DNA of 64,000 bases from a virus (IMGVR_UViG_3300025669_002431), one strand, 5' to 3'; positions 3,986-58,635 are shown, counted from the first letter of the stretch. The notes: generated from the sequence alone by a model not told the origin. Made by a program: numbers and translations.

Positions 3986-3994
3986 ATGATTGAC

Positions 3995-4085
3995 AAGATA
4001 AACTATATGGGATTTGAACCCACATTTCCGGATTGCGGTCCGGTGCCCTACCAATTAGACGAATAGCCGCTATACATATTGTCTC
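3995..4085 (-). pseudogene. degenerate tRNA-like sequence (pseudo-tRNA)
   Basis: Has a T-arm GTGGG-TTCAAAT-CCCAT and a D-loop AATTGGTA motif. Acceptor and anticodon stems do not pair canonically and no CCA is present. Confidence 0.35.
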
Positions 4086-36184: not shown

Positions 36185-37128
36185 TAGTTTACCTTCCTAT
36201 TCAGAACCTTTAAGGCTTTCTTTATTGAGCCTAAAGGAACTGAGTTTGTTGCTGTGTCAATATTTAATGTGTATAATTTGTAAGGAAAATATCGAGTATA
36301 TTCTTTGATTTTATTCATCATAATACAACGATCCCAACCTAGTATTTCTCCAGCTAACCACATAGGACCACTGTTTATTCCAATGAAGTATTTACACTCT
36401 GCTATTTTATTCATCATGTCTATAATAGTTCCCCCTGATTCCCTCATGGTATTTCCATTCATCCATTTAGGAATAGGTTGGACACAATAATGTGGCAGCA
36501 TAGGAACATTCATATGAATTTCAAATGGATCATATCCCATCGCTTTAACATCATTCCATACTATTTCGGGACCACCATCCATTAAACTTTTTTTACTATA
36601 AGCAGTATTACCAATGAAATGAATGCCCACCATATTAGAATTTTTAACAGGTTTTATTTTAGGTCTCCAGTTACCCCAATCAACATCTAATCCAAATTCT
36701 AATTTCGCTACATTTTGAAACTTCTTCAGCTTAGAATTCATGGGCTGTTCTGGAAACTTTAAAACAAATATATAATCATATTCTTTAATATATGAACTAT
36801 CATATTTTTCTTTAAATGTATCTTTGAATACAGAAGGTCTATCGTGTTTTCCTTTTGTCTTATTTAAAATCACAATATCTTCGTGTAATCCTTTGACTTG
36901 GATCATGGGGTGACAACCTATATTGAACTCCCAATTAGGATATTTTTTCTTAAGTACTTCATATATCTGGAAGAACATTATGAAGTCGCCAAGCCCATGA
37001 TCGAAAACAAAGAGAGCTTTCCCTGATTTTTTCCTGTTAAGATAAGAACAGACAGTGGCTCTCTTTGAAACTATATTCTCTATTAGCATATTATTTCCAA
37101 ACGTCGGCGTCTTCCTCACTTGTTTCAT
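36184..37128 (-). CDS. putative glycosyltransferase (GT9/heptosyltransferase-like N-terminus)
   Basis: ALFVFDHGLGDFIMFFQIYEVLKKKYPNWEFNI resembles the GT9 signature. Weak. Confidence 0.35.
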   Translation of the reverse strand: MKQVRKTPTFGNNMLIENIVSKRATVCSYLNRKKSGKALFVFDHGLGDFIMFFQIYEVLKKKYPNWEFNIGCHPMIQVKGLHEDIVILNKTKGKHDRPSVFKDTFKEKYDSSYIKEYDYIFVLKFPEQPMNSKLKKFQNVAKLEFGLDVDWGNWRPKIKPVKNSNMVGIHFIGNTAYSKKSLMDGGPEIVWNDVKAMGYDPFEIHMNVPMLPHYCVQPIPKWMNGNTMRESGGTIIDMMNKIAECKYFIGINSGPMWLAGEILGWDRCIMMNKIKEYTRYFPYKLYTLNIDTATNSVPLGSIKKALKVLNRKVN

Positions 37129-39376
37129 ACTGTTCTATTATCTCAGTTCTAAGCACGTCCTCTACATCATTATCCCATGCTTTTCTAAATTCAGCATTTT
37201 CTCTGTAATATTTAATCGCTTCCTTCTGTCTAAACTTCTGAGTAGGATACGATTCTAATGTACACCAAGCGGCAGCTTTAATTCTTTTTGTTCTCTTTAG
37301 TAGTTCATAATTTGTCCAGAAGTTTGAGAAGCCTCTTTCGAAACTAACTATCATGGATATGTCAATGTTTGGAGAAAATAACTTATTCTTTACAGCCTTT
37401 CCTGTGAGCTTAACTCCATTGAATCCATACTCTCCTGCTACATCTCCAGTAGGCCTGAAGAAAAAAAGTTGTGTAGATGCGAATAGATTAGCATTACCTC
37501 CTGGAATATTATACGCTCCAAGAAATTTTAGTTTATTAAATCCTTTGAATTTACCAACCTGCATACTATCTCTAAGTTGATTCAGAGCGAACAAACATAT
37601 ATTATAATTTGCCATCTTATCAGAATATTTTTTAAGATATTTAGTAAGGGCACTTGCTTGTATACTTAATTGTTCTGTATTAGTTGTTACCTCAGCTTCA
37701 GTAGGAGTACTCGCTATACTATCCCATACTATAATGGATGGTACATCTAGTATATCTTTGTGTTCTTCCTTATATGCACATAACCCCTCAACGATTGAGA
37801 ATACCTTTTCGATTGTAATTCCATTTTGTGGATTTATCTCTGGATATTTAACTCCAAGATCTGTAAGTCTTTTTTTAGTAGTTGTATTTTCTGAATCTAA
37901 GTATACTGATATAAATTTTCCAGGCCATTTCCTTTGACCCGAAGATATAACCTTCGCAGCCAATGTAGAGTTATGAGTAACTATGAACTCGTCAGTTATA
38001 TATGACCCATTTGGATTATTAACTTCTATGCACTGAGCTTCTGATTTTTCAACAAACTTAACCGATTTTATACATTTCGTTATGGTTCTTTTTCTTATAT
38101 TTGATAATAACTTTGATTTTTCTTTTACTCTTACTGGGGGAAAACAATTTGGTAGGTTTATATCTAGTTGAAATGATTTAAAAATATTCCCATTATATTT
38201 TGTTTTTTTATTATATATTTTTATTCTTCCTCCCAATGATCTAATTATAAATGCTACGTCATCTATCAATCGTTTAGATATTGAATAAAAACACATTCTA
38301 TTTGTTTTTTCTATAGATCCATCAGTATCACATAACCCTTGTAAGATTGATAATCTATCATCAATTGAACTAAATTTATATGAATCTGGTATAAATTTAT
38401 CTTTAGAACTTTTTCCCAATAATCCTAATTCATTTAAAATAACTTTCATCTCATTGCGTAAAATATCTTTTTTGCCTTGACCTCTTCTATTCATTCTATT
38501 AAATATATATCCGTATTTTGAGCCATTAATTACCTCTAATTTTATATTATCTGGGAGGGTTTTTTCACAAATATTTATAATTTCTTTATATTTATCAGAT
38601 ACTGTAAGAGATATTTTATCATTTCGACTATACATAGATCCATCTCCCAAAAGGCACCCCAATAAATATGGGTCAATCGGTAAATTATTTTTATCAAAAT
38701 TAATAGCATTATTAACAGGTATGGTCCATTTTTTATCGCTAGTATGTTGGTTATTTATATCTTCAAAAATCTCTTCTAATCGTCTAACTTTAAATTCTGA
38801 TTTATAATCTTTTTTACATATCCAAAGATGGTCTAACGTGGATCTAGCTTTGGTTCCGTCGGTAAATTTTATTTCATATATATCCTTTTCCCCCTGTGGA
38901 GATACATTTGTAATATTACAAATTTCCCCTCTAGAATCAAATACATTATTTCCTATTTTCATTTCTCCCATAGTCTTCCAACCACTAGGTGTTAAAATTT
39001 TAGAATACAATGGTTGTGCTTTTCCACAACCAGGAGGCCCAACAAATTGTACTAATCCTGTCGAGACTCCTCCACCAAGTACAGTATCCAATAGATCTAT
39101 ACCAGTAGGAATAGTTGTCTTATTTTCTTTTGATTCAGTAAAGTCATATCCTTTTTTAAGGAAAGAAGAAAAGTCTTCAAATAAGTCTTTAGATTTTTCT
39201 AATTCACCTTCTGTCAGCTTGACATCCGAATATTTACTAGTTATTAATGTATCTTCTTCTATTGATGCTGCCGCTTCCGTTGGGACCTGAGGTAGCAAAG
39301 TTTTCTTTTTCTTTTTCTCCTGCACTGCAGGAATTGATTCTTCTTCAACAAGTTTATCCATTATCTTCCTTTCCAA
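37091..39376 (-). CDS. RecA/UvsX-family recombinase interrupted by a LAGLIDADG intein in the Walker A loop
   Basis: The extein reads LGGGVSTGLVQFVGPPGCGK-STLAAKVIS...VYLDSE, a RecA-like P-loop. The insert has LAGLIDADG motifs (LLGCLLGDGSM, LQGLCDTDGSIE) and ends THN|S. Confidence 0.7.
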   Translation of the reverse strand: MERKIMDKLVEEESIPAVQEKKKKKTLLPQVPTEAAASIEEDTLITSKYSDVKLTEGELEKSKDLFEDFSSFLKKGYDFTESKENKTTIPTGIDLLDTVLGGGVSTGLVQFVGPPGCGKAQPLYSKILTPSGWKTMGEMKIGNNVFDSRGEICNITNVSPQGEKDIYEIKFTDGTKARSTLDHLWICKKDYKSEFKVRRLEEIFEDINNQHTSDKKWTIPVNNAINFDKNNLPIDPYLLGCLLGDGSMYSRNDKISLTVSDKYKEIINICEKTLPDNIKLEVINGSKYGYIFNRMNRRGQGKKDILRNEMKVILNELGLLGKSSKDKFIPDSYKFSSIDDRLSILQGLCDTDGSIEKTNRMCFYSISKRLIDDVAFIIRSLGGRIKIYNKKTKYNGNIFKSFQLDINLPNCFPPVRVKEKSKLLSNIRKRTITKCIKSVKFVEKSEAQCIEVNNPNGSYITDEFIVTHNSTLAAKVISSGQRKWPGKFISVYLDSENTTTKKRLTDLGVKYPEINPQNGITIEKVFSIVEGLCAYKEEHKDILDVPSIIVWDSIASTPTEAEVTTNTEQLSIQASALTKYLKKYSDKMANYNICLFALNQLRDSMQVGKFKGFNKLKFLGAYNIPGGNANLFASTQLFFFRPTGDVAGEYGFNGVKLTGKAVKNKLFSPNIDISMIVSFERGFSNFWTNYELLKRTKRIKAAAWCTLESYPTQKFRQKEAIKYYRENAEFRKAWDNDVEDVLRTEIIEQYETSEEDADVWK
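37970..39019 (-). mobile_element. intein with LAGLIDADG homing endonuclease (in the RecA-like gene)
   Basis: About 350 aa with block A-like ILTPSGWKTM..., two LAGLIDADG motifs and C-terminal ...IVTHN followed by Ser. Confidence 0.6.
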
Positions 39377-41132: not shown

Positions 41133-42029
41133 TTATTTCTTTCCTATTTTAGAACATTTCCAACCATTTTTATGGCTTTTCTGTCGACCGAATGCCACAT
41201 GATTCATTCCAACTACGTTTAAATTATTTTCTTCACAAAATTTAGATAAGTTATCTACAATATATATTTTTCCAGTTGGATCAATTATTTTATATTTATT
41301 TTTTGTTCCATATGTATTTCCTTTATTAATATCAGATATTTTGTTCCTTAACTCATCATTATTCCATGCAGATTTTATCTTGTTTTTGTGTTCTAATCTC
41401 TTTTCATCACTTCTATTTTTCCAAATTTCTGTCTGTATTTTGGATATCTTTTTCTTTACTTCAGGTCTATTTAGAGAATCAGTAATTTCTTTTATTCTTT
41501 TACTTCTATTTTCTTCAATAGACCAAAAATTCTTTAAACCTCTAGAAACTTTTTCTTTATATTCTTTGTTTTTATTTAACTCAGTAAAAATTTTACTATG
41601 GTTTTTTCTTCTCTCTTTTGACCATTTTTGATTTATTGGTGTCTCTCCACCATCTGTTAAATTTGTGAGAGGACCATTTCCTAAATCATATCTGCCTATA
41701 TTTTTTATTATATGTTTTTCTTCATTAAATGCATTTAATTTATTCATCTCAATTTTTAATTTAATTATAATAGGTTCAAGATCATACCTAAAAATCTTTC
41801 TAATTTTGTTAAGTTTTAATTGGTTTCTTTTAGAAAAACATCGACTTGCTTCAGATAGATGGGATTTATATCTCCGACCATGACCTGCGCCAACATAAAA
41901 TGGTTCATATAATAATCCAAATCCCAAATTAGGATAAACATATTTTCCAGGTTTTCGGGGATCTAGATAAATATATACATAATAATTATTTTGATTTTTT
42001 TTCTTTTTGTTTTTTGGAGTGGAGGGCAT
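41133..42029 (-). CDS. GIY-YIG homing endonuclease
   Basis: GIY-YIG core YYVYIYLDP...FYVGAGHGRRYKSH followed by Lys-rich NUMOD-like DNA-binding repeats. Confidence 0.78.
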   Translation of the reverse strand: MPSTPKNKKKKNQNNYYVYIYLDPRKPGKYVYPNLGFGLLYEPFYVGAGHGRRYKSHLSEASRCFSKRNQLKLNKIRKIFRYDLEPIIIKLKIEMNKLNAFNEEKHIIKNIGRYDLGNGPLTNLTDGGETPINQKWSKERRKNHSKIFTELNKNKEYKEKVSRGLKNFWSIEENRSKRIKEITDSLNRPEVKKKISKIQTEIWKNRSDEKRLEHKNKIKSAWNNDELRNKISDINKGNTYGTKNKYKIIDPTGKIYIVDNLSKFCEENNLNVVGMNHVAFGRQKSHKNGWKCSKIGKK

Positions 42030-43050
42030 AAATTAAATTTCCTGTTGCTACAGCCGCTAATGGGTCTTTTGCTCTTCTTATATCAGAGACATTATATGGG
42101 AATATATCTCTATAGTTTTCATCGAAAACTTTTGTAAAACATTCTATAAACCCATTGGGTAAAGATGTTCCACCCGATACAATGATCGGAATATCTTCTC
42201 CTATTTCGAGAGCATCAGAAGATTTTTCAAATTCTTTACAAAATGTTTTTAATATATATTCTATCATATCTTTATAGAAGAAAACCAGACACTCTAATGC
42301 TCGTTTCTCTGCTTTTTTCTTTGATATAATAGGATTATCTAAATCTAATTTACTCTCTTTTAATCTTGTAACTCTACTTACAGGAACATTAATAGAATCA
42401 GACACTTGTTTATCAATCCAGTCTCCTCCTCTCTTGATAGCAAATGCTAGACTCATAATTCCTCTGTAAGAAAACGCTACATTAATTAAACCACATCCAC
42501 AACTGATCCCTATTCCGCTAAAGTTCGTATCTGCACACTCTGAAAAAATTATCCCCATTCCTTCATTTAAAGGTTTAGCATCATATCCGATAGAATCTAA
42601 AACCTTTGAGAACACCTGTTCATGATACAGCACAGGAGGATTGTCAGCGTCTACTGTGTCTGCTGGCACTGAGTATACACAATAGCCTCTTTGTCCCTTA
42701 GGAGGCGTTTTGACTAGCTTCTTAGCCATCACAGTGAGTATATCTATAGCATCTATGTCCTTGCTGGAGATGACGCCTCCTTCCATAGGACGTCTTGGAG
42801 TAATACCAAATATCTGGGAAAATCTAAAACAATCTTCACCAATAATAAAGACTCTTTCCACATCGTCCTCATTACTAACTATGTAATCTAAATCTGTATT
42901 TTCTAATTCTTCTATTGCTATAACATCAGTATCAATCTCTGAGAACATATTTCTTACTGTATTTATAGTAATTTTACCTTCAGTTGCCTGACAGGCGGAA
43001 ACTTGATTCATTGTACCTAAATCATACCCATAATAATGTTTTATATCCAT
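41986..43050 (-). CDS. actin-fold ATPase (ParM/MreB/FtsA-like)
   Basis: ASKHA motifs: phosphate-1 YGYDLGTMNQVSA, phosphate-2 GIGISCGCGLINVAF, adenosine IIVSGGTSLPNGF. Confidence 0.6.
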   Translation of the reverse strand: MDIKHYYGYDLGTMNQVSACQATEGKITINTVRNMFSEIDTDVIAIEELENTDLDYIVSNEDDVERVFIIGEDCFRFSQIFGITPRRPMEGGVISSKDIDAIDILTVMAKKLVKTPPKGQRGYCVYSVPADTVDADNPPVLYHEQVFSKVLDSIGYDAKPLNEGMGIIFSECADTNFSGIGISCGCGLINVAFSYRGIMSLAFAIKRGGDWIDKQVSDSINVPVSRVTRLKESKLDLDNPIISKKKAEKRALECLVFFYKDMIEYILKTFCKEFEKSSDALEIGEDIPIIVSGGTSLPNGFIECFTKVFDENYRDIFPYNVSDIRRAKDPLAAVATGNLIYALHSKKQKEKKSK

Positions 43051-43419: not shown

Positions 43420-43926
43420 TTAAATATACTCTATGTTGACTTCTCTACACTTTAATAGTTCATCGTAAATATTTACCATATGGTGCTCTACAGTCATCCT
43501 ATATGACCTATCTACTCCATCTCTAACCCCATCTTCTACCAAATAATCATTATTTATTATTGTTTTAAAATAAATTTTGTCATATGACTCAATATGATGT
43601 TTGGCCATCTCTATCATAGCCAACGCTAATTCATCATCTCCACCACCATTTATTCTAGTATATGCTATTGAATCAATGATAGTTCTATCACATATAACAA
43701 TATCATAATTTGCTTCTAAAAATAATTCATGTTGTAGTTGTGAACAAAATATCCACATTTGACTTTTTGAGTTTCCATCTTTATTAATTTTAAATGGGGA
43801 GTGTCTAGCGTTCTCCATAAAAATACCTACAGATTTAGTAGGGTGTATCATTTTCATCTCATGTGCTTTTTCTAATACAGATGTGGTTTTCCCAACCGAA
43901 TGTGAACCCGAAAATGCTATACGCAT
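43420..43926 (-). CDS. P-loop NTPase / small kinase-like protein
   Basis: Walker A AFSGSHSVGKTT at the N-terminus and Walker B-like DIVICDRT. Family not assignable by eye. Confidence 0.45.
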   Translation of the reverse strand: MRIAFSGSHSVGKTTSVLEKAHEMKMIHPTKSVGIFMENARHSPFKINKDGNSKSQMWIFCSQLQHELFLEANYDIVICDRTIIDSIAYTRINGGGDDELALAMIEMAKHHIESYDKIYFKTIINNDYLVEDGVRDGVDRSYRMTVEHHMVNIYDELLKCREVNIEYI

Positions 43927-44735
43927 AAAATAATACCTTTCTTTTCTAAAAAATTCTCTAATGCTTGTTTTTCATATACTCCACTTTTCTTTAGATTTTC
44001 CTCAGCTGATAATATTTGTAAGTTATCTAAAGAATTTATAACTTTAGGATCATCTATTCCATTTTCAACAAAAGATTTTATTGGAATAATATGATCAATA
44101 TGATAATTGGTTGTATCTTCTTTCCAAAGATTATAATTTTTACACTTCTTTAAATGTTTTAGTAAATCTTGTCGAGAATAACCCAAAGTTTTTTCTGTAC
44201 TTCGAGACTTTCTTTTTCCTGTTGCCTTCGTGGTACAAAATAAAAGAGATTTACATAATATATGAATCCGTAGTTTATCTTCGACTTCTTCCCTATTTGG
44301 ATTCCACGATTTACTATTTTTACCGCTTGTTCTTTCTTTTCTACATTGTTTACACAAACTACCTTTTCCATTATTTCTTCTTTTGCTGATAAAATGAGAT
44401 AGAGTTATAGATGATATATTCCCACATCTACATCTATATTTCATTTTTGTTTTATTATTAATATATTCTTTTTCAAGGAGTTCACAACCCTTATCGAAAA
44501 AAATCTTTTTAATATCCTCATAATTAAACTTATGTAAATCTTTTCTATTTTTAGCAGAACAACTTCTACAATAAGGAGACCGTCGTAATGTATTCCAAGA
44601 ACTATTTTTTTCTTTTCCGCAAGAACAAATGCATTTTATTTTAGTATGCGGATTAACATAAATTTCTTCTAATAATTTGCATCCCTTATCCTCTAAATAT
44701 TTTCGTATATATTCTATTGTATATTTTTTATTCAT
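43917..44735 (-). CDS. HNH-type endonuclease with Cys-rich N-terminus (paralog family 2)
   Basis: YHIDHIIPIKSF...LDNLQILSAEEN. Multiple CxxC pairs. Paralog of 46199..47008. Confidence 0.6.
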   Translation of the reverse strand: MNKKYTIEYIRKYLEDKGCKLLEEIYVNPHTKIKCICSCGKEKNSSWNTLRRSPYCRSCSAKNRKDLHKFNYEDIKKIFFDKGCELLEKEYINNKTKMKYRCRCGNISSITLSHFISKRRNNGKGSLCKQCRKERTSGKNSKSWNPNREEVEDKLRIHILCKSLLFCTTKATGKRKSRSTEKTLGYSRQDLLKHLKKCKNYNLWKEDTTNYHIDHIIPIKSFVENGIDDPKVINSLDNLQILSAEENLKKSGVYEKQALENFLEKKGIILCV

Positions 44736-45479: not shown

Positions 45480-46208
45480 TTATAATAACTTCTTTTCCCA
45501 TTTATCTCTATCTTTTCTGATTTTCTTCATTGTGTCTTCTATTTTACGTTTACATAATTTAGGCTTATCTGTTTTATCGCATTTTGACATCTGAGATAAT
45601 AATGCTTCTTCTATTTCTTTTGATCTTTGTATTTTACAAATATATAAATCCTTACCACTATATTTCTGGCACTCACCATGTACATGCTTCCTATATAATT
45701 TTCTAGTTACTAATGCTATAATACCAATTACTGCTATAGAAGATACTAGTGCAGCAGTACCTTTAATATGTTTCCAATCCCCGTGAATTTCTTTTGCTCT
45801 TTTACTTATATCATTAACTTTTGCCATGACTAGATCCATTGTATCAACAAATTTTGTACCCATCCTAGGAATATCTCTTATCTTACCTTTAGAAGGACCA
45901 CTTAGAACATCTATCTGAGATTGCCTATCATCAATTCTACTCATTAACCCCTCTCTAGATGTCTCTGTTAATAATAGTTCTTGAATGTGTTCGGTAAAGG
46001 TATCAAATAAATTTTCACAGATGTTTAATCTATCTATCATTTCTTCTGTACTAACTGTATCATCTGTTACAATTTTATTTATGCTAATCTCATAAATTTC
46101 TTGAATGGATCCTGGCTCATCTAGTTCTTCTCCGACTAGAGCTTCCATAAGATCTCCTAGAGCGCGTTTAAATTCTACGCTCATCAAAAAACTTTCACTT
46201 ATGTACAT
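45480..46208 (-). CDS. hypothetical protein with C-terminal TM segment
   Basis: 242 aa. TM TAALVSSIAVIGIIALV near the C-terminus. Confidence 0.35.
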   Translation of the reverse strand: MYISESFLMSVEFKRALGDLMEALVGEELDEPGSIQEIYEISINKIVTDDTVSTEEMIDRLNICENLFDTFTEHIQELLLTETSREGLMSRIDDRQSQIDVLSGPSKGKIRDIPRMGTKFVDTMDLVMAKVNDISKRAKEIHGDWKHIKGTAALVSSIAVIGIIALVTRKLYRKHVHGECQKYSGKDLYICKIQRSKEIEEALLSQMSKCDKTDKPKLCKRKIEDTMKKIRKDRDKWEKKLL

Positions 46209-47008
46209 ATGATTTCCTCCTCGATATAATCTGTGGTGGTATTTTTTAAATATTTATTAAACAAAAGTTTATCGCATTTTGAACTCTTTTTCCAATTACT
46301 ATGACTTGGTAATATGCGTAAATTATCAAGGGCATTTATTATTTTAGGATCATATATTTTTTCATCTATAAATGATTTTATTGGAAATATATGATCTATA
46401 TGATAATTATAAGAGTTATTCTTCCAATTCTCAAATAATGGATCTCTTTTGAGTTTATTTAAAAAGTCACCTCTAGAATATCCAAGCATGTTTTCTGTTT
46501 TGCATGTTTTTTTATGACCTGTTGCTTTTAATGTACAATATATTAGAGACCTGCATGCTACGTCTACTTTTCTCCTTACTTCTATTTTTTGCCTATCTGG
46601 ATTCCAATTATAATGATTCTTTCCCGATCTCTTTTTTATAGCACATTTCATACATCTCTGACCTTTCTTAAAATCTGAAAATCTTATATTTGAAGTGTTT
46701 CCACAAGAACAGATGTAAATTAATGTAGATTTATCATTCCTGTAGTTATCTAATAATTCGCACCCATTTTCTTTAAAATACCCTTCAACATAATCCTGAG
46801 TATGTTTTTTATATTTATTAGTTTCTGCATAATTACATTTTTTACATTTATGTTTCTTTTTAAAATGAAGAAATTTTATAAATGATATATTTCCACAGGA
46901 ACACCTAAATTTTATCGGATATTTAGTACTTCTATAGGTATCAATTAGTTTACATTCATATTTTTTAAAATATTCTTCAACATATTTTTGATTATATTTT
47001 CTATTCAT
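46199..47008 (-). CDS. HNH-type endonuclease with Cys-rich N-terminus (paralog family 2)
   Basis: YHIDHIFPIKSF...LDNLRILPSHSN. Shares WNPNRE/WNPDRQ and YCT(L/T)KATG blocks with 43917..44735. Confidence 0.6.
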   Translation of the reverse strand: MNRKYNQKYVEEYFKKYECKLIDTYRSTKYPIKFRCSCGNISFIKFLHFKKKHKCKKCNYAETNKYKKHTQDYVEGYFKENGCELLDNYRNDKSTLIYICSCGNTSNIRFSDFKKGQRCMKCAIKKRSGKNHYNWNPDRQKIEVRRKVDVACRSLIYCTLKATGHKKTCKTENMLGYSRGDFLNKLKRDPLFENWKNNSYNYHIDHIFPIKSFIDEKIYDPKIINALDNLRILPSHSNWKKSSKCDKLLFNKYLKNTTTDYIEEEIICT

Positions 47009-47267: not shown

Positions 47268-47714
47268 CTAATCTTTCTCTGGTCTTGCTTTTATAAATAA
47301 CCAGGACTTCCCCGACCTCGGATTCTTCTTTATTCTTTTTCTATCTTGACTAACAAAAGCCGGAGGCCGTATTAAAGTAAATTTTCCATCCATAATAGGA
47401 CCTTCTACTACAAATGTAATATGAAACTTTCCCCATCCCCTAAGCTCAATCATTCCCTTCTGTAGTACCTTAACTATTCCCTCTCCAAACTCCCCTTTAG
47501 GAATTACATAGTGGTCAGCTTTAAGCCACCACATATCATGGTCGTGTCCTTGCATAGCTAAAGTTTTTTCATGAACGTCAGGAATTCTATGTTTAGGAAG
47601 TGCCCAAGAAGCTACACTTAATCTATTAGGATATTTAATTCTAAGATCATAGTGATGCTTTGCTCGTCCCATACTATAATGATCGTGTAAAATATATGGT
47701 AAAAATCTAGCCAT
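47268..47714 (-). CDS. LigD-type 3'-phosphoesterase (PE) domain protein
   Basis: AKHHYDLRIKYPNRLSVASWALPKHRIP...GHDHDMWWLKADHYVIPKGEFGEGIVKV...GWGKFHITF matches the LigD PE signature. Confidence 0.75.
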   Translation of the reverse strand: MARFLPYILHDHYSMGRAKHHYDLRIKYPNRLSVASWALPKHRIPDVHEKTLAMQGHDHDMWWLKADHYVIPKGEFGEGIVKVLQKGMIELRGWGKFHITFVVEGPIMDGKFTLIRPPAFVSQDRKRIKKNPRSGKSWLFIKARPEKD

Positions 47715-48348: not shown

Positions 48349-48495
48349 TTATTTCTTTTTCGCTGCTTGTTTCTTTTTCATACTTCTATATGCTAGATAT
48401 CCAGCACCACCTGCCGCCACTGCCGCCCCTCCCACTCCTACTATTACCGCCGATTTCTCTTCTAAATAATCTATAAACATATTAGATTCATGCAT
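48349..48495 (-). CDS. small single-TM protein with Lys-rich tail (48 aa)
   Basis: Not in the ORF track. MHESNMFIDYLEEKSAVIVGVGGAAVAAGGAGYLAYRSMKKKQAAKKK has holin-like architecture. Confidence 0.35.
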   Translation of the reverse strand: MHESNMFIDYLEEKSAVIVGVGGAAVAAGGAGYLAYRSMKKKQAAKKK

Positions 48496-49072
48496 TGTTA
48501 TTTTCTCCTATGATATTAATCATATCTTTAAAACTTTCTGAACTACACTTAAGGATATCTTCAAATAAATATATATCTACTGTGTCTTTCCATTTATCTA
48601 AAAACATCGCTTTTATATCAAGAGTAATATATTCTTTTAGATTACAAGTGAGAGTACTTTCACATATAAACAATTCTGGTCTATAATTTTGTTTTGCAAT
48701 AAGTATAGGATGTTTACGTTCTGACAATCCTATCTCTTTAGTCCCATTCCACCATCCCCGAAGCCCTGTCTCCTCACTACCAGTAATGAGGTCCCATAAA
48801 TTAATTTCTTTGTAATGTTTACACTCTACAATTACTTTTTCAGAAAAAATAGCTGTCTCTTTAGATGTGGATGCTATATCTACAGCTTGCCCTTCAGTAA
48901 CTAACCCTTTCTTAGCTCTGATAGTATGTCTTCCACCGCTAGATTGAGAACGCCAAAAAAGATCATCCCGCTTCCCATCACTCCAAAGCTTAGAAAGGTC
49001 TCTAGCAACTTTTCGTTCAAACCGTCCACCTTTTTCCTTAGAGTTCATTTTATCTACCTTTATATTTTTCAA
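48488..49072 (-). CDS. putative PD-(D/E)xK-family nuclease
   Basis: GRFERKVARDL...AVDIAS...VIVECKHYKE has D...ExK spacing consistent with the restriction-endonuclease fold. Weak. Confidence 0.4.
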   Translation of the reverse strand: MKNIKVDKMNSKEKGGRFERKVARDLSKLWSDGKRDDLFWRSQSSGGRHTIRAKKGLVTEGQAVDIASTSKETAIFSEKVIVECKHYKEINLWDLITGSEETGLRGWWNGTKEIGLSERKHPILIAKQNYRPELFICESTLTCNLKEYITLDIKAMFLDKWKDTVDIYLFEDILKCSSESFKDMINIIGENNNA

Positions 49073-50260: not shown

Positions 50261-50842
50261 CTATTTTATTCTTGTTATAGTTCCAGTGTACGATAGAAAT
50301 GCTGCTAATGGAATGCTCCAAAACAAGGTGAGAAACATCCCAGTAAATATTGGCCCCCAAAATTTCATAGCATTCCCTGCATCTGCATCAGCAACTATTT
50401 CATATGTTGCCCCTTTAACTTCTACGGTAAACTTATGATATGGATTGGAACCAGAATTCCATCTAACATTACAATCTATATTTTTAACTCCTTTTGCATC
50501 GGCGACCACCTTACTTGAGAGCCCACCCTTTGGAAAAAGTGCTATGTTTGCCCCTAACATTTCTCCCTTCTTTTTAGGTAATCCTGAATCAAAAAGCATA
50601 TACGATGTAGCAGCACCAGCCAACAGCTGCCAACCTACTTTTTTTGATCTATCTTCTGCCTGAATGATAGTACCCCCTCCATAATAACTACCTTCTTTTA
50701 AAACTTCTGGACTTAGAAGTTCTTCAATTTTCCGTTCACTTACATATGTTTTCTTTTCCATTGCTACTTCTCCATTGCTACTTCTCATATATTTATAATG
50801 TGTACACATTACAACCACAGTCCCAAATACGATCATACCCAT
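50261..50842 (-). CDS. membrane protein (N- and C-terminal TM segments)
   Basis: MGMIVFGTVVVMC... and ...IFTGMFLTLFWSIPLAAFLSY. Confidence 0.35.
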   Translation of the reverse strand: MGMIVFGTVVVMCTHYKYMRSSNGEVAMEKKTYVSERKIEELLSPEVLKEGSYYGGGTIIQAEDRSKKVGWQLLAGAATSYMLFDSGLPKKKGEMLGANIALFPKGGLSSKVVADAKGVKNIDCNVRWNSGSNPYHKFTVEVKGATYEIVADADAGNAMKFWGPIFTGMFLTLFWSIPLAAFLSYTGTITRIK

Positions 50843-52634
50843 TGAGTTGCATATTCTGCCACTCAGTTAAATTTGAATCAAATGATTCTAATAAATTTTT
50901 TAATTTATGCTTCTGAAATTTAATTCTAGAGGATCTATCTCCATTCTTAACATAATAATAAGAAGGCTTAGATTTAGAAGTAAAACTAAATCCATTCTTT
51001 AAATAAACTTCACCAGTTCCATATCTTAAATCACAATATGTGATAATTGATTTAGGATTATATTTAGTTTTAAAATACTTTAATAATTTAGAGAACCCAC
51101 CAACAACACTAGTATTAATCTTATTACAAAATCTTAATATTTCATATTCGTATTTTTTATTATATCTGGATTTACCAATGGTTAAAATAGAAACTAATTC
51201 GTCTTCGAAATATAGTCCATATTGTGTTCCTTTGATAGAACCCTGAATGTGGTTATCAAATAAAAATAATTGGGCATTATCATTTGCAACTTCTTTAATA
51301 GTACATTTACGAGCAAATACCCGATATTTAGTTAACCCTAGTTTATTTTTGATTATAGACTTAACAATTTCTAGCTTATCAATCCATTCATCTTCGAAGA
51401 CATGTAAAAGATTTATTCCTTTTTCTTTACATTTATAAGTTTTATCCAAGTGATAATCTTTATTTTTACCATTAAGATCCGAATGCCAGTATAAACCATT
51501 ATATTCGATAGCAAGGTTATTGGATAGTATGTAGACGTCGAGTTCCTTACCGATTAATACAGAGCGGTCATTCTCTATTATTTCAATATCGTCGGTTAAG
51601 ATTGATCTACAAAAATCAAAAATCTCTTTCTCACCTTTGGAACAACTATTCAATTTAGGATAACAATTTGAGCATCTTGGGATTTTGCCATTGTCTACAC
51701 TATCGTTAAAATCATTTCCACATTTAATGCAGTTCCAAGAATATTCAAAATCAACCCCTTGAAAATCATTCTCTGTGAAATTTGGAGCGCATTTATTTTT
51801 AAGTCGATCAGAATTAATAAGATTAGTGAAAAATTTGCTTCTTCTTTTTTGTGTAGTATTATATATTATTTCATCTAATTGCAGAATTGTTTTTACACCA
51901 TATTTCTTTAAATTAGTTTTCTCAATTTTGTCTCTAATTTCTTTAGAGTTAGAAGCGTGTTCTACACCATATTTTTTTAGATTTGTATTTTTAATTTTTT
52001 CTTTCACTTTTTCAGATTGGAAAACACATTCAACACCATGTCGGTTCAAATTAGTTTTTTTAATCTTAGATTTAATATCTTTATTCTGACCAACATTTTC
52101 AACACCATATAGTTCTAAATTAGTTTTCTTAATCTTATCTCTTATTTCCTTAGATTGTAGTGGATTTTCAACACCATATCGTTTCAGGTTAGTTTGTTTC
52201 ATTTTAGTTCTTATCTCTGATGACTGGCCGGAATATTCTACACCATATTTTTCTATCATAGTATGTTTAGCACGATCTCTGATTTTTTTAGATCTCGATA
52301 CATGATCTACACCATACCTTTTTTGAAATGTTTTTTTAGTTTTAATTTTAGTCTCTTCAGCTTGCAATGTGCATTCAACACCATATCGTTCAAGACTGCT
52401 TCGTTTTCGTTTTTCTACCCCGTGTTTTCCGCCGCACGACGCCGAACAAGTTTTAGTAAATCCTTTGCCAAGTCCTTTAAAGTTACATAACTGGCCACAT
52501 ATAGGACATTTATTATTAGAATTAATATATTTTAAATAGTATATCATAATATTTATTTTATGAAAACTACGGATATGTCCTGATAGTTGAACTAAATTCT
52601 TAAATTCTTTATCACATATTTTACAGTTTATCAT
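50793..52634 (-). CDS. modular endonuclease: C2H2 zinc finger + about 8 NUMOD3-like 29-aa repeats + Vsr/DUF559-like nuclease domain
   Basis: CKICDKEF...HIRSFH C2H2. Tandem repeats KTNLxxYGVExxxQSKEIRDKIKK. C-terminus DVYILSNNLAIEYNGLYWHSD...GINLLHVFEDEW matches the Vsr-like endonuclease core. Confidence 0.55.
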   Translation of the reverse strand: MINCKICDKEFKNLVQLSGHIRSFHKINIMIYYLKYINSNNKCPICGQLCNFKGLGKGFTKTCSASCGGKHGVEKRKRSSLERYGVECTLQAEETKIKTKKTFQKRYGVDHVSRSKKIRDRAKHTMIEKYGVEYSGQSSEIRTKMKQTNLKRYGVENPLQSKEIRDKIKKTNLELYGVENVGQNKDIKSKIKKTNLNRHGVECVFQSEKVKEKIKNTNLKKYGVEHASNSKEIRDKIEKTNLKKYGVKTILQLDEIIYNTTQKRRSKFFTNLINSDRLKNKCAPNFTENDFQGVDFEYSWNCIKCGNDFNDSVDNGKIPRCSNCYPKLNSCSKGEKEIFDFCRSILTDDIEIIENDRSVLIGKELDVYILSNNLAIEYNGLYWHSDLNGKNKDYHLDKTYKCKEKGINLLHVFEDEWIDKLEIVKSIIKNKLGLTKYRVFARKCTIKEVANDNAQLFLFDNHIQGSIKGTQYGLYFEDELVSILTIGKSRYNKKYEYEILRFCNKINTSVVGGFSKLLKYFKTKYNPKSIITYCDLRYGTGEVYLKNGFSFTSKSKPSYYYVKNGDRSSRIKFQKHKLKNLLESFDSNLTEWQNMQLNGYDRIWDCGCNVYTL

Positions 52635-52637
52635 AAC

Positions 52638-53363
52638 TTATCCAATATCGATTATAACGGCTGGCAAACTACCTCTTTCCATTTTTTCTATCAAATCTCT
52701 TCGCATTTCTTGTCCCTCACTTAGGAGAGCGTCAGCATTTAATGGAATTTGACCAAATGGGGTATTAATCTCAGTATATCCTCTGCGAATACTTCCTATC
52801 ATAATCATTGTATCAGCTAGGCAAAGATCCATAAACACTCTATGAAGAGATACTGGGATCTTTCTAAGATCATCGGGATGAACTCTTTCATATTCAACAA
52901 CAAAATTAGTAGCTAATGTACTTATACTATCGTCTCCTAATACCTCTACAATATTAGGAGCTCTAAATCTATATGTCTTACTCCATGCAGAGAAAGGTGA
53001 AAAAAATCTTGCTTTAAATACAGACAAAGACCACCATTTCATACCTTCAAAACTAGTTGCTCCTGTAGGTGGGTGGCCTGAGATAAAATTATCAGTGCAT
53101 GGCCAATAGCATTCTTTAATCCCCAGAATCTCACTGTTTTCTTCATCGAAGAAATAATACCAACTATTTCTAGTATCGTGTTGATACTCTGCTATATGAG
53201 GAAGTACACTTGTACGTTCTGAATCTGGATAGTATTGACTAAACTCTTTAAGAGATGTGAGCTTACACCAATCTTTGATCTCTTCATCTGTCTTCTCTAT
53301 GAAGGATGATGGAAGAGCCAATCTACCTTTTACATATGTTAAAACTTGATTCCAGGTTAGCAT
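52638..53363 (-). CDS. hypothetical protein
   Basis: 241-aa ORF. Confidence 0.4.
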   Translation of the reverse strand: MLTWNQVLTYVKGRLALPSSFIEKTDEEIKDWCKLTSLKEFSQYYPDSERTSVLPHIAEYQHDTRNSWYYFFDEENSEILGIKECYWPCTDNFISGHPPTGATSFEGMKWWSLSVFKARFFSPFSAWSKTYRFRAPNIVEVLGDDSISTLATNFVVEYERVHPDDLRKIPVSLHRVFMDLCLADTMIMIGSIRRGYTEINTPFGQIPLNADALLSEGQEMRRDLIEKMERGSLPAVIIDIG

Positions 53364-53365: not shown

Positions 53366-53725
53366 TTACGTTCCTATTTGTTCGTCAAACCAGTCTGATG
53401 GTTCGTCCAATGGGCTAATGATATCTACTCCTATTACAATAGAGTTTTCTGTTTTAGGTGTAGCGAAAATAGGAGTATTAAATAACTCGATTATTCTCGG
53501 ACGGAAGTTGAAAATACTAGCAAGAGGGTGATCCCCAATATTATAAGAAAGTTTATATCCTGTGCAGACACAAGTATTACTTCTATACCCTTCTCGTTCG
53601 TAACACTTAGGCTTGATCCAGATTCCATCTATTTCTTGGTCAAGAAGCTCTGGATGAGTTTGTAACTGATTCAACAGATCTCTTCCAGTCATAATAATCC
53701 TCCTATATAAAAATATTTTCAACAT
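53366..53725 (-). CDS. hypothetical protein
   Basis: 119-aa ORF. Confidence 0.35.
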   Translation of the reverse strand: MLKIFLYRRIIMTGRDLLNQLQTHPELLDQEIDGIWIKPKCYEREGYRSNTCVCTGYKLSYNIGDHPLASIFNFRPRIIELFNTPIFATPKTENSIVIGVDIISPLDEPSDWFDEQIGT

Positions 53726-54863
53726 CTTCTAACTCAAGATATATATCATCTAACTTAGATAATGCGTCTATAAATGAATTCTTATTAATGTCATCTTTTT
53801 TATTCAGTATATCATCCATGTACTTAATCCAATTTATTTTCTCAATTGAATTTTTAAGTTCCAACCATCGAGATAAGCATTCATATGATATCATTTTATA
53901 AGCTTTAGTAACAGTTTCGTTAGATTCTAAAGCTGCTTCCCATTTTTTAGAAGTAGCATGCTCTGGGTCTGTATCTATAAATACATTTCCTCCGCTTGCT
54001 ACTCTATCTATAAGCCCAGATCCTATCGTTTTTTCAACTGTATCTGATTCAGATATCATTCTAACAGCATTCTTAGGACCTATGCCTTTTACGCCAGGAA
54101 TGTCATCACTCTTATCTCCAACGAGTGCCATAACCATAGGTATATCAGCTATTTCCAATTTAGATATTTGATATATTAGATCTTGTTGAATCTTCTCAGA
54201 CGATTTGCTGAGCTTCGTATATGAAATTAGGCAATTATCTTTATCTACTAAATGCCTATTGCCTCTCATGGTATATATCTGAACAATATTATCTTCTTCT
54301 AAAATTTGAAACATATCCTTATCATTAGAACAAATTACATTTATAGCATTTTTATTAGTTATCTTTCTAGTTATCAGATAGTATGGTACGAAATCAGATT
54401 CTAGATAGCTTAAATAAAAGAAATGACATCCTGGTATTTTATTAATTACCTTCTCAGATAATTCAGAATTTTTCATTCTGATCTTAAATAAATCTTCATA
54501 TAGTTCTGGATCTTTGAGGTTAGCGATAGCTCTATTTTCTTTATATCCTGTATGTATCTCTCTATGATACGCCGATTTACCAAAATCGGAGAAAAAATAT
54601 AGATTACATTTTAGACCTCTTTCCTTAGAATACTTCTTCCACCATGAAATAGTATATAATACTGCTTGAAATATAGTGCTATCTAAAAATTTAGTTCCTG
54701 TAGAATTGAAGACTATATCTTTTGCAACGTCCTCTACGTATAGAGCTGTTGCAATATTTTTAAAATCGATATAAACATTTAATTCGTCTGGACATTGTTC
54801 ATCTATTCTCTTTTCAAGCTCACCAGGTGGTTTGAATGAGAGAATATTTTTAGGGTCTGGCAT
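53703..54863 (-). CDS. rnh: RNase H / 5'-3' flap endonuclease (T4 rnh-like, FEN family)
   Basis: NLYFFSDFGKSAYHREIHTGYKENR (as GKSFRHELYPEYKANR) and helix-hairpin-helix MVMALVGDKSDDIPGVKGIGPKNA. Confidence 0.82.
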   Translation of the reverse strand: MPDPKNILSFKPPGELEKRIDEQCPDELNVYIDFKNIATALYVEDVAKDIVFNSTGTKFLDSTIFQAVLYTISWWKKYSKERGLKCNLYFFSDFGKSAYHREIHTGYKENRAIANLKDPELYEDLFKIRMKNSELSEKVINKIPGCHFFYLSYLESDFVPYYLITRKITNKNAINVICSNDKDMFQILEEDNIVQIYTMRGNRHLVDKDNCLISYTKLSKSSEKIQQDLIYQISKLEIADIPMVMALVGDKSDDIPGVKGIGPKNAVRMISESDTVEKTIGSGLIDRVASGGNVFIDTDPEHATSKKWEAALESNETVTKAYKMISYECLSRWLELKNSIEKINWIKYMDDILNKKDDINKNSFIDALSKLDDIYLELEDVENIFI

Positions 54864-55404: not shown

Positions 55405-58400
55405 CTATTTTTTAATTTCACAACTACCATTATCGCAGAATTTTAGCGTTTCTTTTGATTCTATCTCTTCTTCTTTAGTCATTTTTATCTTCGATAATTT
55501 TAAAGGTTTTAGGGTTGATATATATAATTCATATTTTTCTTTTGTAATTTCTTCATATGGCATTTGTTTATATGATTTCACATCAAGAGGTAAAAATGAT
55601 ACAGCTTTTATTTTGTCTTCATATACTTCTAACACATCTTTAATCGAATTAGATTCATTTTCGTTAAATGTTACAGTCTGTGATACACCATTATCAGACC
55701 AATAGTGTTGTATATCTGCGTGAAGAGCCATTTGTTCCCATATAGTAATATCTCTCTTGGATTTAAAGAAATTTTTAGTTCTTATTGGAAATTCAAAAAT
55801 CCACGAATTTTTTTTATAATAAGACTGCTCTTTTTTATATCCGGCAATTTCTAGTGGTTTAATAAAAGGAGAGTTTTTTTGAAATTCTATTCTTCGAATA
55901 TAATATTCTGAGTGTGGAAAATGAATACCCGGATTACTTCCTGGTAATAATGATACAGTATTATGACTTTTTATACCTCCGGAATAATACCAATGATCTT
56001 TATCGACTTCTAAATCATACGTTTCTTCATACCCTTCTAATTCATGTACACTTACTACTTTACCTAAAATTAAAACATTTTGAGATTCAGTCAGACACTT
56101 AAATGATATATCATGTGGTGGATTTCGCATGTCATTTATTTTTATTAATTTATTGGATGTTTTTAATAATACATGGAGAGAATTAATATCTGTGTGGGAA
56201 TTTAATGTTAAATTCCATATATGTTTAATTTCTTGTTTGTTCTCCCCTTCTGTATTCAAAGATCTTCCAAAACATAATCCAACAGAAAATCCAACTTCTT
56301 GTATATTTTTTGCAAAATTATCATAGGCGGTTGAAATACATATTCCCACATCGCCGTCACGAACAAATACACAACCATCCGAATCAATTAATCCCGAAAT
56401 AAATGCTAAAATATTTTCTTTAGATGATTCTCTTACAATTCTTGGAATTACCGATATATTGCCCTGTTCATCATATTTAGTTATTCCATTAATATTCCAA
56501 AAGTCCCAAAGATGCCGAGACCCAATTTCAAGCACAAACGCGTTTCTATCTTGACTTGCAGGTTTTATATTAGAGTCTAATCCAAATAAATCATATATTA
56601 TTTTTTTTGCTTTTTCCAGATTATATTTATTCTCATCTATAAATCTAGTTCTAAATTTATGTCTACTCAAACAACCGTCTCCATATAAATATCCTATAAT
56701 CCAAGCAAGATCATTATTCATATATTCAGGTTGAGTTATAATATTTCCACGAGCACCAATAAAAGTATCTGGTATTGCTGAATGGGATAGTTTTGAACAA
56801 ATATTTTTTCTATAAGAATTCATACTAATATGAATAATATCGCCAGCTCGAACATCATTGGCACATATCCATTTGTTGACGTCTATTCTCTTATATCCTC
56901 CTTTTTCACTACTAGCATTCATATGTTCACTAACAAACACCATATGATTCGGGGTGCATTCAAAATCTAAATTGTAGTTCATTTTAATTTTAATTATTTT
57001 AGAAGTACTATTTCTATATGTTCTTAATATTTTATTTTTACTATTTTTCTGGTATACATAACTATCACTGTGATCGTTGTTCCACTCCAAATCTTCAGGA
57101 TGTTCTTCTAATAATTCATCTAGAGATAAAATCCCTCTATCTGTCGAAGTTAACGATCTACCCGGTCTACAACCACTCGGTTTTGTCGTAGTTACTTTTA
57201 TACTTTTCGGTACACATAACCACCTAGAATATAATTTATCCAGTTTTCTAATATTATTATATCCAGAATCACAAAACTCATTAAGAAACCTACGTCTACC
57301 AAATTTATAAATAGCATCTGTTATTCCTGACATAGATAACCCAATTCTTCTATTTCTAAGCATAACTTGATTTGTGCGTTCATCATGAGATGGTACTAAT
57401 GTAACACTTTTAGCTAAAAGATAAGCATATTTAAGAGTTTCTAAAAATTCTTCTTCGTTTTCATGATTAGCTGGAAATGTTTCACACAATAAACACATTT
57501 CATATTTTGATAGTGACATTTCAGCACAGGGATTTAATCCACAAACTCCCTCATCTTCCCATTTCTCTCCATCTTTTATCCTCCCATACTTTCTCATATT
57601 ATCTAAATACACTATTCCTGGTTCACCGTTATTAATAATGTGCTTGGTTAATTGTGTATAATCTGCACCAACTTCAGCAAATACTGAATTGTTTGAATTC
57701 CATCTCCAATCCTTTAATTCCTTTTCATATTTCTCAGGATTTTTCATATTCAAAAAATCAATATCATCATATTCTCCTATTGCTATTTCACTAGACCTTC
57801 TTTGTCCACCGCTTACTACACATTTCCCAACTATATTGAAAATATCAACTATATTTACAGATGTAATATATTTATCTACACATTTATTAAGAACCAGTTT
57901 TATCTCTTCTATACATAATTTTAATGGACCTGGTCCGGGAGCAATGCCTCCAAATGTTTTTATAAAACTTCCGTTAGGTCTTATTTTACTAAAATCAAAT
58001 TCTCTGGGCATTTTTGATTTATGAACATAAGAGTTTAATACTACTTCCACAGCATCTCTCCAACCTTCTCTACTATCATCTATAGTAAAAACATAATCTC
58101 CAACCTTAGGTTCTTGAATTTTAACTTTTCCTGCCCCTTTTAGATCGAATCCGCACCCTACCCCCAATAAAGCAACGTCCATTAACCAACAAAAAGGTCC
58201 ACTAAAATCATAATGTAGATCTTCAGTGGAACAAAATCCACAATTTAATAAAACAGCTACTCCTTTTTTCCAAACAACATCTTCTCCAAGGGTCCACAAC
58301 ATTCTCCCTGGAGGAAGAAATTTAAAATTCCACATCAACTCAAACATTTTTTGAGCAGATTTCTGTGCTTTATGTGCATTCCAATACAATCTTAAATTTT

Positions 58401-58635
58401 TACAATGATTTAGTTGAATTGTATAACATCCTTCCACTACTCGTTTGAGAGTCTCCCAAAATTCTTCATATCTATCTTCTTTTTCAATATATCGACTATA
58501 CGTTCTTTTATATGTAATAGCTCCAACTGGTCCCCAATTAGGTTGCTCGTTTGTATATTGATCTAAAAAATTCTCTGTCAAATTAAACTTTTCCCTGATT
58601 GGAAAAACCCAATCACTCATGTCAACTTTTGTCAT
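55405..58635 (-). CDS. nrdJ: class II (adenosylcobalamin-type, monomeric RTPR-like) ribonucleotide reductase interrupted by a LAGLIDADG intein
   Basis: Active-site GLNPCAEMSL...CLLCETF (N-x-C-x-E). C-terminal redox pair FCDNGSC (C-x4-C). The extein is about 700 aa. The insert has block B ECTPNHMVFV, LAGLIDADG motifs (IGYLYGDGCL, ISGLIDSDGCV) and ends SHN|T. Confidence 0.7.
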   Translation of the reverse strand: MTKVDMSDWVFPIREKFNLTENFLDQYTNEQPNWGPVGAITYKRTYSRYIEKEDRYEEFWETLKRVVEGCYTIQLNHCKNLRLYWNAHKAQKSAQKMFELMWNFKFLPPGRMLWTLGEDVVWKKGVAVLLNCGFCSTEDLHYDFSGPFCWLMDVALLGVGCGFDLKGAGKVKIQEPKVGDYVFTIDDSREGWRDAVEVVLNSYVHKSKMPREFDFSKIRPNGSFIKTFGGIAPGPGPLKLCIEEIKLVLNKCVDKYITSVNIVDIFNIVGKCVVSGGQRRSSEIAIGEYDDIDFLNMKNPEKYEKELKDWRWNSNNSVFAEVGADYTQLTKHIINNGEPGIVYLDNMRKYGRIKDGEKWEDEGVCGLNPCAEMSLSKYEMCLLCETFPANHENEEEFLETLKYAYLLAKSVTLVPSHDERTNQVMLRNRRIGLSMSGITDAIYKFGRRRFLNEFCDSGYNNIRKLDKLYSRWLCVPKSIKVTTTKPSGCRPGRSLTSTDRGILSLDELLEEHPEDLEWNNDHSDSYVYQKNSKNKILRTYRNSTSKIIKIKMNYNLDFECTPNHMVFVSEHMNASSEKGGYKRIDVNKWICANDVRAGDIIHISMNSYRKNICSKLSHSAIPDTFIGARGNIITQPEYMNNDLAWIIGYLYGDGCLSRHKFRTRFIDENKYNLEKAKKIIYDLFGLDSNIKPASQDRNAFVLEIGSRHLWDFWNINGITKYDEQGNISVIPRIVRESSKENILAFISGLIDSDGCVFVRDGDVGICISTAYDNFAKNIQEVGFSVGLCFGRSLNTEGENKQEIKHIWNLTLNSHTDINSLHVLLKTSNKLIKINDMRNPPHDISFKCLTESQNVLILGKVVSVHELEGYEETYDLEVDKDHWYYSGGIKSHNTVSLLPGSNPGIHFPHSEYYIRRIEFQKNSPFIKPLEIAGYKKEQSYYKKNSWIFEFPIRTKNFFKSKRDITIWEQMALHADIQHYWSDNGVSQTVTFNENESNSIKDVLEVYEDKIKAVSFLPLDVKSYKQMPYEEITKEKYELYISTLKPLKLSKIKMTKEEEIESKETLKFCDNGSCEIKK
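55960..57156 (-). mobile_element. intein with LAGLIDADG homing endonuclease (in the RNR gene)
   Basis: About 399 aa, SLTSTDRGIL... to ...YYSGGIKSHN. Blocks A, B, C/E, F and G are recognisable. Confidence 0.6.

Follow-up and report, generated by a model that had tools for sequence, protein, structure and literature searches.

The 64,000-nucleotide stretch IMGVR_UViG_3300025669_002431 (the window, by which we mean the whole stretch analysed) is a segment of a phage genome that encodes a stand-alone, "minimised" LigD-type 3′-phosphoesterase (PE) of 148 aa. The protein is a member of a subfamily, here called the W-type PEs, which has not been described before and is conserved in a widespread group of uncultivated jumbo phages. 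In this subfamily a Trp takes the place of the catalytic Tyr, and the residues peculiar to the 3′-phosphomonoesterase step are changed, with the phosphodiesterase core retained. We propose, with middling confidence, that the window PE would serve as a 3′-nucleoside-trimming phosphodiesterase of phage DNA replication and recombination, and that its 3′-phosphatase activity would be weak or absent. The system is not of a new kind; its novelty lies in the Trp variant and in finding the PE fold among phage replication/recombination genes.

The PE open reading frame (ORF) runs on the minus strand from an ATG at 47714 to a TAG at 47270-47268; an initial annotation of this DNA had mentioned neither that strand nor the nuclease partner described below. 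The translation holds HHYDLRI, SWALPKHRIP, HDHDMWW and IPKGEFGEGIVKV, and the plus-strand frame across 47268-47714 has many stop codons. Since the ORF on the 5′ side ends at 47728-47726, 11 nt before the PE ATG, there is no room for a longer N-terminus, and just seven residues of the protein precede strand 1. Six further metagenomic contigs, from ENA, JGI and Logan and up to 80 kb long, carry a called gene for the identical protein. A scan of genome contigs with the single PE protein returned only a weak partial match, in a Solibacteraceae metagenome-assembled genome. Around the gene, promoter and terminator counts stayed at shuffle level, operon boundaries were not indicated, and no compositional anomaly was seen in the GC profile.

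That the window protein belongs to the LigD-type PE family is close to certain. Pfam PF13298 (LigD_N) matches it at 55.8 bits, above the gathering cut-off of 31.1 (E 6e-15, profile positions 6-107 of 107), and phmmer against PDB sequences returns CkoPE (3p4h) as the best match, together with MbaPE (3p43), PaeLigD-PE (3n9b and 2lj6) and the Methanocella PE (5dmp). An AlphaFold2 model built on a 19-sequence alignment has a mean pLDDT of 92.7 and a pTM of 0.87. Compared with the PDB by Foldseek, it gives seven matches at E ≤ 0.001, all of them PE structures with probability 1.00, and the next match is at E 0.19; the target-normalised TM-scores for two minimal archaeal PEs are 0.87-0.89. The model and these matches agree on the eight-stranded β-barrel of the PE fold, to which the model adds a basic C-terminal helix, residues 118-130. 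The NCBIfam equivalog model TIGR02777 (LigD_PE_dom) scores 52.7 bits, below its cut-off of 144; the window PE is thus a member of the family yet no equivalog of the LigD domain. Together with the phage gene content seen in PHROG matches, the Pfam and fold matches bear out the initial annotation in its central claim, a stand-alone PE-family protein in a phage. The assignment as such is ordinary because stand-alone PEs are well known from archaea and bacteria.

The catalytic residues tell more. In PaePE, six residues are required for both activities, with His42, His48 and Asp50 at the metal and Arg52, His84 and Tyr88 at the phosphate, and Gln40, Glu82 and the N-peptide residues Arg14, Asp15 and Glu21 are required specifically for the 3′-phosphomonoesterase step (PMC3300020, PMC8656161). 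All six catalytic residues, Tyr included, are strictly conserved in the set of Brissett et al. (PMC4797286). In the window protein, the predicted metal ligands H12, H21 and D23 (PaePE H42/H48/D50) and the predicted phosphate ligands R25 and H59 (PaePE R52/H84) are invariant, both in the 19-sequence alignment and in an alignment of close relatives. K41, likewise invariant across the alignment, aligns with Lys66 of PaePE, a residue that influences the diesterase activity. The sixth essential residue is missing: Trp63 occupies the canonical Tyr position (PaePE Y88, CkoPE Y55), in the register H59 plus four that is also that of CkoPE His51/Tyr55 and MbaPE His78/Tyr82. The model has a short helix at residues 61-64, corresponding to the 3-10 helix of PaePE at Leu86-Asp90; from the alignment register and helix 61-64 we infer the placement of W63 relative to the metal site. 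In addition, His57 replaces the canonical Glu, His10 replaces the canonical Gln and the N-peptide is absent, so that, together with the TIGR02777 score, none of the marks of a full-function, phosphatase-proficient PE is found. The PE signature read in the initial annotation therefore stands for the His, Asp and Arg ligands (H12, H21, D23 and R25 are all present) and for five of the six catalytic residues, but not for the Tyr, nor for the phosphatase-specific Glu and N-peptide.

This combination is not peculiar to the window. Trp63 is kept in the query and in 8/8 close relatives, and an exhaustive profile search of 1.84 billion representatives, with a query profile built from W-type sequences, gave 6,090 clusters of the PE family at E ≤ 1e-3, of which 33 reached E ≤ 1e-30. 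Among the best 150 representatives, 50 have Trp with a residue other than Glu at the Glu position, 7 have Trp with Glu, 7 have Tyr with non-Glu and 67 have Tyr with Glu. In the same best 150, the W-type proteins have a median length of 143 aa (48/57 are no longer than 200 aa), and those with the canonical Tyr (Y-type) a median of 463 aa, most of them being fused to other domains. A second profile search added about 100 further clusters, each of 130-160 aa and each metagenomic, several of them on contigs of 160-335 kb.

We define a W-type PE as a protein of about 130-160 aa with H-H-D-R...H, Trp for Tyr, a residue other than Glu two positions before the His, and membership of a clade of its own. 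The window protein has all of these (signature HHHDRSHDHW; profile E 3.8e-53). The collected W-type sequences, all from metagenomes, number 148, with pairwise identities of only 35-60%, and in 143 of them H-H-D-R...H is intact, which argues for a selected, active enzyme. In a neighbour-joining tree built without the three signature columns, a single bipartition places 136 of 144 W-type sequences, and 5 of 125 Y-type sequences, on one side. On this side of the split, the Trp position is occasionally Phe, Ser, Ile, Ala or Val. In the subfamily, Glu has given way to His, Pro or Asn, and Gln has become His in about half of the members. Compared with CkoPE, the phage clade carries one to three extra residues between the first and second His ligands and three more following the Arg. 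Thus, W-type PEs are a coherent subfamily, selected for an intact metal and phosphate site and evidently able to manage without the tyrosine hydroxyl. Many of its members (P0219, P0221, P0222, P0226-P0228, P0251, P0256 and others), single-domain proteins of 130-185 aa, carry the JGI automatic name "bifunctional non-homologous end joining protein LigD". P0297, a Y-type relative at greater distance, comes from an ordinary archaeal chromosome.

The PE gene also has a characteristic place in the genome. We compared the window with nine related phage lineages, on contigs of 21-335 kb, whose common gene order is FEN, a protein of about 240 aa, a PDDEXK_15 nuclease, PE, in some cases a ribonucleotide reductase (RNR), a Volactin-like protein and RecA. 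By BLASTP, the genes of this block that are common to the window and its relatives share 34-61% identity. The PDDEXK_15 gene lies immediately upstream of the PE gene, overlapping or abutting it, in L004, L005, L009, L012/L040 and L041; a single gene intervenes in L007 and L039, and in L011 the distance is about 0.9 kb. Three small ORFs part the two genes in the window; they match no family and have no homologue in the related loci. The gene downstream of PE varies among the relatives (class II RNR, NrdD and others), and PE is therefore anchored on its nuclease side. The nuclease has the invariant motif E19...D65...E83-x-K85 and shows weak tblastn matches to the annotated resolvase gene of Bacillus phage SP-10; public gene calls begin at an internal Met and give 186 aa. 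Its profile found no match among PDB sequences, single-sequence PDB matches were set aside as spurious repeat matches, and the structure model, from a 3-sequence alignment, had a pLDDT of 40.5, too low to use. Homologues of the 241-aa protein in the relatives have a faint T4 gp13-like match.

The initial annotation had also pointed to a zinc-ribbon neighbour. In the window the ATG of that gene does lie 1 nt past the PE stop codon, but a homologue adjoins PE in no relative, and we have rejected the protein as a functional partner; its match to DUF6171 (20 bits) is below the cut-off of 27. The zinc-ribbon gene belongs with the genes that the synteny map places in the window only, the others being two HNH-like genes, glycosyltransferases, a DUF7487 homing endonuclease and the three small ORFs. 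Two observations concern the block in particular relatives: in L041 a Tad2-like (anti-Thoeris) gene, at 7160-7453, stands directly 5′ of the PDDEXK_15 gene, and in L007 a YAcAr/SLOG-domain gene, at 7932-8285, lies between the nuclease and PE.

What reaction might such an enzyme perform? The proposed nucleophile of the monoesterase step in CkoPE and PaePE is a water that is bound to the phosphate and kept in place by the Tyr hydroxyl; when the Tyr is changed to Ala, CkoPE keeps 23% and MbaPE 18% of the phosphodiesterase activity, and the 3′-phosphate product accumulates (PMC3082917). Deletion of the N-peptide selectively reduces the monoesterase activity, and CkoPE, itself "minimised", has a feeble monoesterase and prefers single-stranded substrates (PMC3258152, PMC3082917). 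Brissett et al. noted that N-truncated PEs often lack the Glu too and suggested that another phosphatase acts in those organisms (PMC4797286). The phage subfamily combines all four changes at the monoesterase-specific determinants, Tyr, Glu, Gln and N-peptide, and retains the phosphodiesterase core; such a combination would predict a 3′-phosphodiesterase with little or no 3′-phosphatase activity.

We picture the window PE as an active manganese-type 3′-phosphoesterase that would work alone, outside any machine of non-homologous end joining (NHEJ). It would clip the 3′-terminal nucleoside; the classical substrate is a DNA strand that ends in a 3′ ribonucleotide tract. In the phage, the likely substrates would be 3′ ends on RNA-DNA hybrid strands, or flaps, produced by replication and recombination. 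PE would be expressed together with FEN, RecA and the resolvase-like nuclease, and after trimming the NAD-dependent ligase of the window would be available for sealing. It is tempting to go further and propose that W-type PEs in general are a largely phage-borne family of dedicated 3′-nucleoside-clipping phosphodiesterases that have shed the phosphatase half, are functionally coupled to the resolvase-like nuclease and perform a core step of jumbo-phage recombination-dependent replication; on this view the RNA 3′ tracts of primers or R-loops, for example, could be trimmed into ends usable by the phage polymerase or by a NAD-dependent ligase. This wider proposal is tentative, and we think it a good deal less likely to be right than wrong.

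Several points weigh against the trimming proposal. The indole NH of Trp can donate a hydrogen bond, so Trp63 may stand in for the Tyr and phosphatase activity may persist. The association of Trp with loss of the Glu (Fisher's p 8e-21 among the best 150 representatives) is uncorrected for phylogeny, and that list is enriched in W-type sequences through the query. The adjacency of nuclease and PE occurs within one related phage family in which the whole block is syntenic, so it may reflect inherited order and not functional coupling, and more distant viral W-type PEs have no nuclease within 4.5 kb. As to the origin of 3′-ribonucleotide tracts in this phage, no Prim-Pol was found among window ORFs of at least 90 aa. 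Finally, PD-(D/E)xK, HNH and GIY-YIG nucleases leave 3′-OH ends, and PE would therefore be unneeded for healing the products of its neighbour. For the same reason, and with the determinants of 3′-phosphate removal changed, we rejected PE as a healer of ends cut by the adjacent nuclease or the homing endonucleases; the processing of endonuclease-made breaks, as the initial annotation had worded it, is unlikely.

The other role suggested there was RNA repair. A PE in tRNA repair would clear 3′-phosphates, 2′,3′-cyclic phosphates or damaged 3′ nucleosides after attack by host anticodon nucleases, and the phage RNA ligases would reseal the strands. The window has the right company in the form of two RNA ligases, a cREC_REC protein, an RF-1 domain protein (within 75-26606) and 10 tRNA genes, and CkoPE, the closest solved relative, prefers single-stranded substrates (PMC3258152). 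These genes share a genome with PE, not a module: the RNA ligases are 24 kb and 35 kb from it, and PE adjoins an RNA ligase, a kinase-phosphatase or RtcB in 0/9 related lineages and in 0/10 more distant stand-alone viral loci. Moreover, 3′-phosphate healing needs the monoesterase step, whose determinants are changed in W-type PEs, and other candidate healers (cREC and two metallophosphoesterase families) are already present in the phage. The healing enzymes catalogued in 224 jumbo phages are of the 2H, cRec, HAD and calcineurin types, and that survey does not mention a LigD-type PE (PMC7824862). We therefore consider RNA repair unlikely and do not uphold the link. A role in NHEJ is far less probable still. 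Homology to the LigD PE suggests it, as does the stand-alone Methanocella PE, whose gene shares an operon with an NHEJ polymerase and ligase (PMC4797286), and the partners could in principle come from elsewhere in the phage genome or from the host, in the manner of split archaeal operons. One viral contig, L031, does combine a LigD_Prim-Pol match with a 478-aa PE-containing protein, which are probably the same protein. However, Ku, an ATP-dependent ligase and LigD Prim-Pol were all missing at E ≤ 1e-4 from the window ORFs of at least 90 aa (in 64 kb of a probably much larger genome), in line with the partnerless protein of the initial annotation, and from the 16-20 kb surrounding PE in each of the nine related lineages. 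NAD-dependent LigA is the one DNA ligase seen in the window, and the LigD_PE_dom score is far under its cut-off.

It is also conceivable, if distinctly improbable, that the enzyme is a phosphodiesterase for non-polynucleotide or signalling molecules, such as the cyclic oligonucleotides of defence systems or nucleotide second messengers, with an anti-defence role. The authors of the archaeal work raised the possibility of stand-alone PEs dedicated to reactions unrelated to end-healing, although both archaeal stand-alone PEs that they tested perform canonical end-healing (PMC3082917). The altered periphery of the active site would be compatible with another substrate, and conflict-type genes do occur near viral PEs (Macro, QueF, and the Tad2-like gene two genes upstream in L041). 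On the other hand, PE is fixed in the replication/recombination block and not in variable anti-defence islands, and the diesterase-influencing lysine, K41, is invariant. Least credible of all is that PE is a decayed or non-catalytic leftover of a captured cellular gene. It has lost the Tyr, one of six essential residues, and the conserved Glu, yet the five other catalytic residues are intact in 143/148 W-type sequences despite their divergence, the model is confident and compact, and the gene has been retained in at least nine diverged phage lineages.

PE relatives in other viruses are varied. With one peptide pattern we obtained 27 IMG/VR contigs on which they are encoded, as stand-alone W-type genes, as fusions of 455-939 aa and as two giants of 1,772 and 2,221 aa. 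Next to ten of the stand-alone viral PE genes lie matches to RNA polymerase subunits, RNR, ThyX, UDG, FEN, LigD Prim-Pol, a DNA-ligase OB domain, Macro, QueF and Band_7, chiefly genes of DNA and nucleotide metabolism. PHROGs holds no family for PE, and tblastn of four different PEs against 50,697 GenBank phage records gave no match; short queries of about 30% identity being near the detection limit for a database so large, this indicates rarity and is no proof of absence. Canonical Tyr/Glu PE domains occur inside giant proteins of 1,772-2,900 aa (L013 2518-7836, L014 100-6765, P0100, P0105, P0110, P0146 and P0149), those of L013 and L014 on IMG/VR jumbo viral contigs of 340 and 302 kb. On L031, an IMG/VR contig of 16 kb, the 478-aa protein (764-2200) is followed 1.4 kb downstream by a stand-alone W-type PE (3619-4053); the neighbour set of this contig includes LigD_Prim-Pol and LigD_N matches, probably from the 478-aa protein.

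The features of the window are collected in Table 1. All its genes are on one strand, and their PHROG matches include a head maturation protease, a virion structural protein, many homing endonucleases, RNA ligases, a dCMP deaminase and DHFR; the window is only distantly related to any deposited phage.

Table 1. Coordinates of the PE gene, of the conserved block around it and of other features of the window.
Feature	Position	Strand	Remarks
NAD-dependent DNA ligase with BRCT domain	1790-3775	minus	
cREC_REC (cyclic-phosphate-processing receiver) protein	6670-7053	minus	
Vault-like protein, 914 aa	7123-9867	minus	Major Vault Protein shoulder, E 8e-28; Vault_3 repeat, E 4e-10
RNA ligase (first)	11658-12746	minus	PHA02142 OB domain
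RNA ligase (second)	23224-23913	minus	229 aa; motif EKMDGSN
RecA gene	37091-39376	minus	interrupted by an intein with LAGLIDADG domain
Volactin-like actin-fold protein	41986-43050	minus	PF25216, E 1.3e-61
Homing-endonuclease-like genes	46199-47008, 43917-44735, 50793-52634, 15052-16743	minus (all)	
Zinc-ribbon-like protein, 82 aa	47018..47266	minus	CxxC...CxxC; phrog_13558, E 2.5e-14
PE gene, 148 aa	47268..47714	minus	W-type, stand-alone "minimised" LigD-type 3′-phosphoesterase
Shine-Dalgarno-like AAGGGG	47725-47720	minus	5 nt 5′ of the PE ATG; read from the sequence
Three small ORFs, 108, 86 and 48 aa	47726..48495	minus	between nuclease and PE; window-specific
PDDEXK_15 nuclease	48488..49072	minus	PF24608, E 3e-15; phrog_244 "Holliday junction resolvase", E 4e-13
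Conserved 241-aa protein	52638..53363	minus	phrog_18911; between FEN and nuclease in all relatives
FEN-type 5′-3′ exonuclease	53703..54863	minus	first gene of the block FEN, 241-aa protein, PDDEXK_15, PE
Class II RNR gene	55405-58635	minus	interrupted by an intein with LAGLIDADG domain

Some of these features deserve comment in their own right. The homing load is heavy: a T5orf172 protein, a DUF7487 protein of 613 aa and two paralogous zinc-ribbon/HNH proteins (269 and 272 aa), with GIY-YIG and further HNH matches besides. The homing-endonuclease-like genes appear as window-specific insertions that split the conserved block. The relatives, like the window, carry inteins, in RNR or NrdD. The ten tRNA genes are dispersed among protein genes (675-31685, minus strand); one of them, a predicted tRNA-Tyr with the odd anticodon ATA (14952-15030, beside a tRNA-Ala), may be a mis-call or an unusual decoder. 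The vault-like protein gene is followed directly by the cREC_REC gene, with a NUDIX hydrolase nearby (5487-6065, minus strand), and a vault-like protein in a phage beside a predicted cyclic-phosphate enzyme is unusual. The Volactin-like protein has homologues in L004 (12515-13612), L005 (14666-15709), L009 (14628-15689), L012 (10057-11154) and L039 (9900-10952), shows 45-48% identity across the jumbo-phage group and always lies between the PE/RNR genes and RecA; it may be a cytoskeletal element of the phage.

To our knowledge, studies of the PE fold have dealt only with end-healing in the NHEJ of bacteria and archaea, and the role of a dedicated clipping phosphodiesterase, if true, would be its first outside NHEJ. 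In the W-type PEs nature provides a separation-of-function variant with which the two PE activities could be told apart, and they suggest that the DNA metabolism of large phages includes a 3′-end-processing step absent from current surveys. The automatic "LigD" labels on PEs of 130-160 aa are wrong and could inflate the count of NHEJ systems in metagenomes.

Among known systems, the RNA healers of phages (the T4 Pnkp-type HAD phosphatase, 2H, cRec and calcineurin-like enzymes) could prepare 3′ ends for a ligase, as PE could, but their folds and active sites are unrelated to those of PE; the window carries representatives of cREC_REC and Metallophos. The bacterial LigD PE, exemplified by PaePE, has the same fold as the window PE and the same five metal and phosphate residues. 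It forms one protein with ligase and polymerase domains, has Ku as a partner and possesses the N-peptide, Gln40, Glu82 and Tyr88, none of which holds for the window PE; it combines full phosphatase and diesterase activities and prefers primer-templates, traits that we would not expect of the window PE from its residues. The Methanocella paludicola PE (5dmp) is stand-alone and again of the same fold, but it is full-length, with an N-extension, keeps the six catalytic residues complete and is encoded in an operon alongside the NHEJ polymerase and ligase (PMC4797286), whereas the window PE is paired with a PD-(D/E)xK nuclease in a replication/recombination block.

The nearest likeness is to CkoPE of Candidatus Korarchaeum cryptofilum (3p4h, 117 aa), which, like the window PE, is a free-standing β-barrel core without N-peptide or LigD C-peptide. 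It is the best PDB match by sequence (1.8e-11) and a top match by fold (target TM 0.89), and it shares the metal triad, the Arg and the His. Its behaviour, diesterase-proficient with a feeble monoesterase and a preference for single strands, is that predicted for the window PE. Nevertheless, CkoPE keeps Tyr55 and Glu49 where the window PE has W63 and H57, and it lacks both insertions of the phage clade as well as the C-terminal helix 118-130 of the window PE. CkoPE is, moreover, a cellular, archaeal protein, whereas the window PE is that of a phage.

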